From NCBI GenBank assembly GCA_964492735.1, contig CAZBLE010000002.1, positions 135-64,134 on the forward strand: a DNA stretch of 64,000 nucleotides, given 5' to 3'. Position 1 is the first letter of the stretch. Every line of letters starts with the position of its first letter. This document shows positions 57,202-58,525 of the stretch, piece after piece. This DNA is from an uncultured Gammaproteobacteria bacterium (lineage in GTDB: Bacteria; Patescibacteriota; Patescibacteriia; UBA9570; XYC2-FULL-38-9). The position numbers and the translations under genes are program-made. The notes beneath the pieces were generated by a model. The model worked only from the letters and a program-made list of their open reading frames with translations. It was not told where the DNA came from and ran no database searches.

Positions 57202-57678
57202 TTAGCCTTCAGTAATTATTTCAAGTGGTAATTCAGCTACCTTCTTATAGGTATTATTATTGTCAGTTTTTATTTTAATGAGAAATTTATATAATCCAAA
57301 CTCAGCAATTATCGGTAAGCCTTCTACTCTTGCGATAGTTCTGGTTCTATTTTTCTCGCTATCTACCTTGATGTCATTTGCCATTGTTGCAATGATTTTG
57401 CCCTTTGGGCTTACTATTTCAATTTTCATTTTTAAAGCAGTTGAGCTCCTCACTTTATTATGTAGCCAAGATGATACGATAGTAAATCGGATTGGAAGAA
57501 TTACTGGCTTTTCGACCGAGCTCTGCTTGATAATTTTTTGTAGATTATCATTGTTCTTGGTCTCTATAGTCAGTAACTCAAGTGCGTTGTGTAATGAAAT
57601 ATTATTTGTTCTGGAGTCTACAACTGCATCATCGCAAACTACAGACCAGATATGTTGAATGTTTAATGTGTTAGGCAT
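57202..57678 (-). CDS. Hypothetical 158-aa protein, third gene of an AT-rich (~30% GC) operon with the HigB-like/XRE pair
   Basis: Overlaps the upstream XRE gene by 8 nt. No motif recognised. Confidence 0.45.
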   Translation of the reverse strand: MPNTLNIQHIWSVVCDDAVVDSRTNNISLHNALELLTIETKNNDNLQKIIKQSSVEKPVILPIRFTIVSSWLHNKVRSSTALKMKIEIVSPKGKIIATMANDIKVDSEKNRTRTIARVEGLPIIAEFGLYKFLIKIKTDNNNTYKKVAELPLEIITEG

Positions 57679-58135
57679 ATTGATGGAATTTTACTTGCTC
57701 TTTATTTGTGTTTTCCGTTGAAATTTTTACTTTATTAACTACGGTCACGGGCTTGCGAAAAATAAAAATGTTATCAAGCTCTATGGTGTTTTCGTTAAGC
57801 TGTATTTTTGTTATTTTTTGAACTTCTAATTCATATCTAGATTCAATCTCGTCCATGAAAGCAAATTTTGGAGCGATAAGATACGTGTCTAATGCATTAG
57901 CTAATTTGACTAACGTGCTTATACTAGGGAGTGTGCTGCCGTTCTCTAGCCGTGCTATAGCTGGTTGTTTAGTGCCTAATATTCTCGCAATATCTTCTTG
58001 ACTGAGGTTTTTTATGATTCTGGCCTCTATTAACATTTCAGCGATTCTTCCGCTAATATCACGAGATCTTTGTATTACAACCTTATTATAGTCCTTACGA
58101 TTTTTTATCAATTGATTGAATGTAGGTAATTTCAT
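57671..58135 (-). CDS. XRE-family HTH protein with a ~90-aa C-terminal extension (HigA-like antitoxin candidate)
   Basis: LSQEDIARILGTKQPAIARLENGSTLPSISTLVKLANAL is an XRE HTH. Its start overlaps the upstream toxin-like gene stop (ATGA). Confidence 0.65.
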   Translation of the reverse strand: MKLPTFNQLIKNRKDYNKVVIQRSRDISGRIAEMLIEARIIKNLSQEDIARILGTKQPAIARLENGSTLPSISTLVKLANALDTYLIAPKFAFMDEIESRYELEVQKITKIQLNENTIELDNIFIFRKPVTVVNKVKISTENTNKEQVKFHQYA

Positions 58136-58491
58136 AGGTTTAAACTAGTAATTCTTTCAAATGCCTTATTATACTCTCGCTTTAATGAGTTTTTTCCCTT
58201 CTCAACATAAGCATGAACTATTATTATTTTATTTGGCCCATATGGATTTTCGTTAGTTGTAAATAATAGTCGGTATTGCTTTTTTTGAGGCCCACTAACC
58301 TTTATCTCATAAAGAGGTGGTTTTTTTGAGTATCCCGCAACTTTTTCGAAATACTTGCTTTGCAAACAGTTTCCTAGAGGGTGTGTTGCCAGCTGACGCA
58401 GGCAAGTATCGGTGAGCTTTACACTAACCTTAGTGTCCCATTTACAGATATCATTTACAACTGCATCTATTATTTCTATTTCCGCGTACAT
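58132..58491 (-). CDS. RelE/ParE-superfamily toxin candidate (HigB/Gp49-like)
   Basis: PLYEIKVSGPQKKQYRLLFTTNENPYGPNKIIIVHAYVEKGKNSLKREYNKAFERI resembles the Gp49/HigB core. Toxin upstream of an XRE antitoxin is the HigBA gene order. Confidence 0.55.
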   Translation of the reverse strand: MYAEIEIIDAVVNDICKWDTKVSVKLTDTCLRQLATHPLGNCLQSKYFEKVAGYSKKPPLYEIKVSGPQKKQYRLLFTTNENPYGPNKIIIVHAYVEKGKNSLKREYNKAFERITSLNL

Positions 58492-58513
58492 TTTTTGTTT
58501 GCTTCATATATAT

Positions 58514-58525
58514 AACAATATTGTT
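58514..58525. promoter_or_regulatory. Perfect 12-bp palindrome AACAATATTGTT in the promoter region of the HigB-like operon (candidate autoregulatory operator)
   Basis: It lies 23 nt upstream of the operon start codon and overlaps a TATAAT-like element. Confidence 0.4.

Follow-up and report, generated by a model that had tools for sequence, protein, structure and literature searches.

We analyzed a 64,000-nucleotide stretch of DNA, hereafter the window (positions 135 to 64,134 of the forward strand of contig CAZBLE010000002.1, GenBank assembly GCA_964492735.1), which was deposited as that of an uncultured Gammaproteobacteria bacterium and belongs to Patescibacteriota in the GTDB lineage. The subject of this study is a minus-strand operon of three genes (58491->57202), of which the first two encode a toxin-antitoxin (TA) pair of the HigBA type and the third encodes a protein that we assign to the family DUF6941. 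Genes of this family lie directly behind diverse TA pairs in genomes and metagenomes, and all of the antitoxins measured carry C-terminal tails. To our knowledge, among characterized TA systems, a dedicated helper protein is found only in those known as toxin-antitoxin-chaperone (TAC) systems, where it is a SecB-like chaperone; examples are HigB1-HigA1-SecB(TA) (Rv1955-57) of Mycobacterium tuberculosis, HigBAC of Escherichia coli, and CmdTAC. As the anatomy of the locus matches that of TAC except for the identity of the helper, we slightly favor the view that the locus is a TAC-like system of the HigBA type, in which DUF6941 takes the place of the SecB-like chaperone and would act by binding the tail of the antitoxin.

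The operon and its HigBA-type pair

Three minus-strand open reading frames (ORFs) overlap one another exactly where an earlier reading of the same DNA, made from its letters without database searches (hereafter the sequence-only reading), had placed them. The genes and the elements within and around them are as follows.

58491->58132, minus strand: gene 1 (g1), 119 aa; divergent toxin of the Gp49/HigB type (RelE superfamily), assigned from the ORF and profile homology
58135->57671, minus strand: gene 2 (g2), 154 aa; HigA-type XRE antitoxin with a C-terminal tail
57884..58030, minus strand: HTH_3 DNA-binding domain of g2 (residues 36-84), assigned from a Pfam match
57674..57835, minus strand: C-terminal tail of g2 (~residues 101-154), ending in ...NKEQVKFHQYA; proposed analogue of the chaperone addiction (ChAD) region of TAC antitoxins
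57678->57202, minus strand: gene 3 (g3), 158 aa; DUF6941-family protein with a predicted beta-sandwich fold, proposed tail-binding third component
58526..58555, minus strand: putative promoter of the sigma-70 type, with -35 TTGACA (58555-58550), an 18-nt spacer, and -10 TATTAT (58531-58526)
58511..58528, no strand: perfect 18-bp palindrome TATAACAATATTGTTATA; putative HigA operator
57059..57084, minus strand: terminator-like hairpin AAAAAUCCCC-loop-GGGGAUUUUU 3' of g3, assigned from folding; the same hairpin makes up the core of the islet-bounding repeat

The ORFs of g1 and g2 share 4 nt (ATGA), and those of g2 and g3 share the 8 nt (ATGCCTAA) reported earlier.

The affiliation of g1 became clear in the comparisons based on profiles. 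The score of g1 against the Gp49 model of Pfam (E = 0.004, 17.6 bits) was under the cutoff of 23.9, the word-index homologue search with g1 found nothing beyond the query itself, and no PADLOC model fitted g1. Against a hidden Markov model (HMM) of 18 syntenic toxins that excluded g1, the protein scored 32 bits. The profile comprising g1 and the 18 toxins matched the solved HigB 6af3_A at 2.6e-20 and HigB1 of M. tuberculosis (7nbu_Y and 7awk_A) at ~2e-6. Furthermore, R74 and K97, which are the sole invariant or near-invariant residues of the toxin set, are retained in g1. The RelE/ParE core of the Gp49/HigB type that the sequence-only reading had proposed for g1 is upheld at the profile level by the match to 6af3_A and the 32-bit score. 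The members of the Gp49/HigB family are ribosome-dependent mRNA endonucleases, and g1 may be assigned this activity from its family.

In g2, the match to HTH_3 is clear (4e-14), and the closest solved relative is HigA 6af3_B, found at 1.4e-7 with g2 alone and at 3.4e-16 with the profile. As the profiles match both chains of a single solved complex (6AF3, HigBA of Streptococcus pneumoniae), the homology of g1 and g2 to this HigBA pair is confirmed by sequence comparison, for g1 at the profile level. The S. pneumoniae pair, which comprises the top solved matches of both proteins, resembles the operon studied here in having the toxin gene first and an XRE antitoxin. The same gene order is seen in the gp49 modules listed by Gerdes 2025 (PMC11980606). 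On the other hand, the S. pneumoniae HigA is 97 aa long and stops where the tail of g2 starts, and there is no third product in the solved complex. The 97-aa HigA aligns to position 92 of the profile, which corresponds to ...KFAFMDE around residue 100 of g2, and the final ~54 residues of g2 have no counterpart in the solved protein. Measured from the end of the Pfam HTH, the extension amounts to 70 aa. The sequence-only reading was thus right in describing g2 as an XRE protein with a C-terminal extension, while its estimate of ~90 aa was too long.

The putative promoter (TTGACA-18-TATTAT) is the top promoter-like match in the region 56900-58950 and agrees with the consensus at 11 of the 12 positions, the assignment being by this match alone. 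The earlier reading had noted a perfect palindrome of 12 bp, AACAATATTGTT, overlapping the promoter. The palindrome is indeed perfect and covers the 3' end of the -10 box, but the 12 bp are the core of a longer one of 18 bp, which lies 19 nt upstream of the ATG of g1. Palindrome arms this long were seen in only 1% of the mononucleotide shuffles of the 120-nt upstream region. In the homologous operons described below, the longest palindrome upstream of the toxin start keeps related half-sites at 8-30 nt from the ATG. TATAAC-N(2-6)-GTTATA was found upstream of the toxin in loci L003, L005, L007, L012, L018, and L019. The Chloroflexi-type loci L020, L028, L035, and L037 have TATAGC-N6-GCTATA, which takes an imperfect form in L028 and L037. 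The palindromes of six loci reached p <= 0.005 against shuffles. The half-sites recur before homologous operons in other phyla. The conservation of this operator-like element supports autoregulation by the XRE antitoxin, which would bind the palindrome. At the other end of the operon, the hairpin 3' of g3 folds with a minimum free energy of -13.8 kcal/mol (z = -5.5 against shuffles); the terminator scan of the region did not call it, and folding shows it clearly.

DUF6941 genes behind toxin-antitoxin pairs

When g3 was compared directly with Pfam (E <= 1), NCBIfam, PADLOC, and the PDB sequences, no match was found, and the word-index homologue search returned the query alone. The family of g3 was recovered by an exhaustive HMMER search over the representatives of clusters made at 50% identity, in which 1,486 representatives were detected at E <= 1e-3 and 341 at E <= 1e-10, with E-values down to 1.8e-21. 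The best 150 relatives listed are stand-alone proteins of 140-189 aa, mostly aligned over nearly the full length. Of 50 full-length relatives, 28 match PF22091 (DUF6941), with which precomputed annotations concur. As its relatives match PF22091, we place g3 in DUF6941 by transitive homology, g3 itself falling under the detection of the Pfam HMM. The sequence-only reading had described g3 as a protein with no recognizable domain. This holds for the direct Pfam search, yet g3 is not an orphan but a part of a large, unstudied family, for which we found no routine housekeeping homologue.

Our literature search yielded no mention of DUF6941 or PF22091, and no paper or function is attached to the Pfam family. 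A further search at the level of titles and abstracts for third components of TA systems retrieved no description of a system of this kind. As no PADLOC model fits g3 or its family, we rejected the idea that g3 is a component of a known defence system. An origin from phages or plasmids was likewise rejected, as no relatives were detected in the viral contigs of IMG/VR, the phages of INPHARED, or the plasmids of PLSDB.

We scanned GTDB representative genomes with a nine-sequence alignment of the g3 family and obtained 45 loci, of which 44 were analyzable. The loci are mostly of Patescibacteria, and the rest are of Chloroflexota, metagenome-assembled genomes labelled as Gammaproteobacteria, Aminicenantes, Desulfobacterota, Chlamydiae, Planctomycetota, and Cyanobacteria. 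Directly upstream of DUF6941 and on the same strand, 40 of the 44 loci have a gene for an antitoxin of a recognized family, namely XRE-HTH (22 loci), DUF2283 (7 loci), HicB (6 loci), or DUF4926 (5 loci). The antitoxin gene is preceded by that of the matching toxin, i.e., Gp49, DUF4258-like, DUF6883, or HicA. Separate gene calls and precomputed Pfam annotations agree with this order, giving Gp49-HTH_3-DUF6941 in L053 and DUF4258-DUF2283-DUF6941 in L051. Of 39 genome loci, 33 have the DUF6941 start at -8 to +12 nt relative to the antitoxin stop, and in 16 of the 33 the two genes overlap by 4 nt. In L046, which is of the cultured bacterium Desulfogranum marinum DSM 2058 (NZ_JAFFQD010000016.1), a HicB-type antitoxin gene is followed by DUF6941, and the hicA region is lost at the contig end.

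An independent scan of JGI metagenomes provided 80 further loci, 77 of them with a complete DUF6941 ORF. One of the same antitoxins is encoded directly upstream of DUF6941 in 62 of the 77 loci. These comprise 34 loci with Gp49 and XRE, 13 with DUF6883 and DUF4926, and 9 with DUF4258 and DUF2283, as well as 5 in which the toxin region is lost at the contig end and 1 in which no toxin was found. Two further types of module precede DUF6941 in some of the remaining metagenome loci. The first combines HigB_toxin (PF09907) with an HTH antitoxin of 194 aa, and the second combines a DUF7689/CHAP-like protein of ~170 aa with a partner of ~200 aa (also in L030, L049, and L050). Altogether, DUF6941 follows at least six types of TA pairs: Gp49 and XRE, DUF4258-like and DUF2283, DUF6883 and DUF4926, HicA and HicB, HigB_toxin and HTH, and the DUF7689-like pair. 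The three-gene architecture is widespread, and neither our literature search nor the PADLOC models gave a description of it. Earlier work placed DUF6883/DUF4926 and DUF4258 among BECR RNase pairs of the toxin/immunity type (bioRxiv 10.64898/2026.08.28.747851; PMC11980606).

The DUF7689/CHAP-like unit was located in L079 (1328-2505), L111 (1446-2488), L056, L069, L112, L030 (2860-3986), and L049/L050 (2018-2997). The DUF7689/CHAP-like protein is 123 aa long in L049, and the partner, of ~185-240 aa, is unannotated and bears the motif IESHEFSARLNVASD. The two may be an undescribed TA-like pair.

The pairs and DUF6941 appear to be exchangeable. DUF6941 proteins that are 75% identical accompany DUF2283 in L021 and DUF4926 in L070, and likewise DUF4926 in L076 and XRE in L061 and L065. 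As such similar proteins stand behind antitoxins of different families, we consider that the modules were exchanged recently. In a simple neighbor-joining tree, the DUF6941 proteins of the loci with tails of the HicB type and the Chloroflexi type form separate branches.

The synteny bears directly on the simplest account of the operon, namely that an ordinary two-gene HigBA is followed by a gene of no functional relation. Such an account agrees with the failure of g3 to match Pfam, the PDB, or PADLOC directly, but not with the presence of DUF6941 behind at least six unrelated TA pairs in several phyla, the conserved start-stop overlaps, and the tails in all ten antitoxins measured. We regard it as very improbable, and a chance downstream gene is effectively excluded by the conserved synteny. 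The tripartite TA organization suggested by the sequence-only reading is borne out by the retention of the third gene behind many TA pairs.

It is also conceivable that DUF6941 is a second effector or toxin neutralized by the antitoxin tail, so that a single bifunctional antitoxin would hold two toxins. This idea finds support in L004 and L006, in which the gene for the DUF4258-like toxin is truncated (3509-3676) and frameshifted (2304-2613), respectively, whereas neither the DUF2283 antitoxin nor DUF6941 is damaged, and in L047, which consists of an HTH antitoxin and DUF6941 with no called toxin. The H, C, D, and E residues that are invariant or nearly so in the family point in the same direction. 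Nevertheless, a complete triplet is the rule, since a recognized toxin is present in 56 of the 62 antitoxin-bearing metagenome loci and five of the other six end at a contig edge. Decay that starts from the toxin is common in ordinary TA loci, and DUF6941, as a small beta-sandwich, matches no known family of toxins or enzymes in Pfam, the PDB, or PADLOC. We thus consider a second effector quite unlikely.

Antitoxin tails and the proposed role of DUF6941

The ten antitoxins measured, which represent four families, all extend 39-86 aa beyond the Pfam domain:

DUF2283 antitoxins: tail of 46-86 aa beyond the Pfam domain; median length 102 aa
DUF4926 antitoxins: tail of 39-68 aa beyond the Pfam domain; median length 115 aa
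HicB antitoxins: tail of 58-62 aa beyond the Pfam domain; median length 161 aa
XRE antitoxins: tail of 56-62 aa beyond the Pfam domain (70 aa in g2); median length 146.5 aa

A natural control is provided by L013, in which a second pair of Gp49 (98 aa) and XRE (97 aa) without DUF6941 (6094-6680, minus strand) lies beside the tripartite locus. The XRE antitoxin of this pair has no tail and equals the solved HigA (97 aa) in length. Despite their polar and variable character, the tails show common tendencies at their ends. Aromatic pairs were found among the final 10 residues in 36 of 76 non-redundant tails, compared with 33 of 217 control ORFs (p = 7.5e-8), and 42 of 75 tails terminate in L, I, V, or A, compared with 65 of 217 controls (p = 9e-5). 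Such ends are exemplified by ...EFNYPVATI (DUF4926), ...KFYYQNL (XRE), ...RFYTISA (DUF2283), and ...VKFHQYA (g2). Homology among the tails of different antitoxin families was rejected, as local alignments gave z-scores of -0.9 to 2.2 against shuffles.

The structure of g3 was predicted with AlphaFold2 (AF2). An earlier model based on the single sequence was poor, with a predicted local distance difference test (pLDDT) score of 55. The model based on an alignment of 26 sequences reached a pLDDT of 90 and a predicted template modeling score (pTM) of 0.84, and appeared to be a beta-sandwich, with about ten strands and a single short helix. In the Foldseek search against the PDB, the nearest structures were PDE6delta, UNC119, and RhoGDI (E ~1e-4, TM-scores of 0.43-0.46, identity of 4-15%). 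These GDI-like factors are beta-sandwiches that shield the termini of client proteins, as we propose for g3; they are eukaryotic and bind lipidated termini, and the likeness to g3 is one of analogy and not of membership. A relationship to SecB was rejected, as no SecB was found in the profile search against the PDB sequences (E <= 10). The SecB fold was rejected as well, since it is absent from the top 50 PDB matches listed by Foldseek and the model is a beta-sandwich. In the viral library, the best fold matches of g3 are uncharacterized phage proteins with TM-scores of up to 0.65. Two such proteins of ~135 aa in BFVD, A0A2P1JU14 of Anoxybacillus phage A403 and A0A2H4JCJ7, are closer to the DUF6941 fold than any solved structure (TM-scores of 0.59-0.76).

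The resemblance to TAC extends over most of the anatomy of the locus. Both are single operons of co-oriented genes in the order of toxin, antitoxin, and third protein. The toxin family is shared, the toxin profile matching HigB1 of M. tuberculosis at 2e-6. The antitoxins in both have C-terminal extensions with no counterpart in two-gene relatives, and the tail of g2 may have an addiction role by analogy. As in TAC, one family of third proteins accompanies several unrelated TA families, at least six in the case of DUF6941. The TAC chaperone serves HigBA, MqsRA, and HicAB, and its ChAD can be transferred, varies in sequence, and cannot be aligned between systems (PMC5105189). The swapping of DUF6941 modules parallels this transferability of ChAD/SecB modules (PMC5105189), and the tails studied here, like ChAD, cannot be aligned and yet tend to be aromatic or hydrophobic at their ends. 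ChAD is recognized through aromatic patterns, and the helper can also act as a phage sensor (bioRxiv 10.1101/2024.02.24.581848), as recently shown for a system of abortive infection. In M. tuberculosis, ChAD ends in a hydrophobic ClpX degron that is masked by the chaperone (PMC8165232).

The differences from TAC reside foremost in the third protein, which is a DUF6941 protein with a predicted beta-sandwich fold and not a SecB homologue; this is the sole defining feature of TAC, among those tested, that the locus lacks, and a chaperone role of DUF6941 would hold by analogy. Moreover, the partners DUF4258/DUF2283, DUF6883/DUF4926, and DUF7689-like found here have not been reported for TAC, and the DUF6941 loci in genomes are mostly of Patescibacteria. 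Canonical SecB is mainly proteobacterial. The sequence-only reading had considered accessory proteins coupled to HigBA to be without an assigned function. This was too broad a statement, as the SecB-like chaperones of TAC and HigBAC systems have an assigned function (PMC5105189; bioRxiv 10.1101/2024.02.24.581848); it is DUF6941 that is undescribed.

Based on the comparison with TAC, we propose that the locus may be a horizontally acquired and autoregulated TA module of three genes. In this module, g1 would be a toxin of the Gp49/HigB type and, by family, an mRNA endonuclease, and g2 would neutralize g1 and repress the operon through the 18-bp palindrome over the -10 box. g3 would be translated in step with the antitoxin and bind the ~55-aa tail of g2, keeping the antitoxin soluble and shielded from proteolysis in the manner of the SecB-like chaperone and ChAD. 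When DUF6941 is lost or titrated, for instance by a client protein related to phage or stress, the antitoxin would cease to function, which would set the toxin free. Tail binding, antitoxin stabilization, and any trigger are what we infer from the analogy with TAC. For the family as a whole, we see the arguments as evenly balanced on whether DUF6941 defines a second, SecB-free class of TAC-like systems, in which a small beta-sandwich would recognize a transferable tail on at least six antitoxin families and control the stability of the antitoxin, possibly as a sensor of stress or phage.

The synteny, the coupling of the genes, and the tails would equally suit a DUF6941 that works in the opposite direction, as a sensor, trigger, or protease adaptor that binds the tail and, upon a signal such as a phage protein, inactivates the antitoxin or hands it over, turning the toxin on. 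The degron-like hydrophobic ends of the tails, the uncharacterized phage proteins as the nearest viral fold matches, and the conserved polar residues, which suggest a specific ligand site, are in line with this alternative. However, the constitutive co-translation of an activator with the antitoxin that it targets would be self-defeating unless gated, and no gating domain is evident in the sequence. In TAC, the only characterized three-gene analogue, the third component shields the antitoxin (PMC5105189, PMC8165232). We regard a sensor or adaptor of this kind as unlikely.

Several observations weigh against the TAC-like interpretation that we favor. The tails of different families are not significantly alignable, and what they have in common is a tendency in motif and composition seen in about half of them; the tails of the HicB type and the Chloroflexi type do not share the tendency at the tail end. 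DUF6941 bears no similarity to SecB in sequence or fold, and the similarity of the predicted g3 fold to the tail-binding sandwiches is weak (TM < 0.5). H9, C15, D21, N25, and E34 are strongly conserved polar residues in the g3 family, and they could mark a catalytic or ligand site rather than the surface of a passive chaperone. In L036, L039, L118, and L130, DUF6941 has no recognizable TA pair upstream, and a broken toxin beside an intact antitoxin and DUF6941, as in L004 and L006, is unexpected for a pure helper of the antitoxin.

The islet around the operon and implications

As the sequence-only reading had it, the operon sits in an islet bounded by repeats. A 37-nt repeat is found at 57059-57095 and 61277-61313 (95% identical), with a third copy at ~62042-62080, while zero copies are expected by chance. 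The third copy adjoins the 3' end of tRNA-Ala(TGC) (62076-62149, minus strand), and the repeats are composed of the terminator hairpin downstream of tRNA-Ala and a few bases of the 3' end of the tRNA. Being present in three direct copies, the repeats look like att-type scars left by two tandem insertions, one of which would carry a HAD hydrolase gene and the other the TA operon and two orphan genes. No integrase was seen. The operon has a GC content of 0.343 (0.356 in g1, 0.338 in g2, and 0.340 in g3), against the window mean of 0.436, and the earlier figure of ~30% was too low. The AT-rich block at 57096-58858 has a GC content of 0.320 and the remainder of the repeat-bounded islet one of 0.442. 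AT-richness is thus confined to the operon and 370 bp upstream of it, and the other DNA of the islet matches the GC content of the genome.

The two orphans of the islet, of 344 aa (58859-59893, plus strand) and 438 aa (59914-61230, minus strand), have no Pfam match. Both contain an HExxH motif (HEPSH, HELYH), and they may be metalloproteases or effectors, to judge from their sequences. Elsewhere in the window, a tRNA-Ser (55537-55624, minus strand) has the anticodon ACT (A34), and its 7-nt loop, TTACTAA, is clean; apart from tRNA-Arg(ACG), bacterial tRNAs rarely have A34. A partial 16S rRNA gene (1-979, minus strand), which covers the 5' 1,014 positions of the model, runs off the window end. 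As it is only 76-77% identical to the 16S rRNA of E. coli, the host is not a gammaproteobacterium.

The position of the helper gene in TAC, behind many TA families and again with tailed antitoxins, is occupied here by an unrelated family of at least 1,486 clusters (50% identity). This suggests that addiction to a helper is a general, convergently evolved means of controlling the stability of antitoxins. If our interpretation is true, helper addiction has arisen on at least two occasions with unrelated folds, and the system is widespread in Patescibacteria and occurs also in Chloroflexota, Desulfobacterota, and other lineages. An uncharacterized DUF of Pfam would gain a concrete and testable role, and a so far unrecognized candidate TA pair, the DUF7689/CHAP-like protein and its ~200-aa partner, comes into view. 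The transferable module of tail and helper could serve the engineering of conditional antitoxins. The cultured carrier D. marinum DSM 2058 and the small size of the operon make experiments feasible, and the operon may offer an entry into the TA and defence biology of Patescibacteria, in which almost nothing has been tested experimentally.

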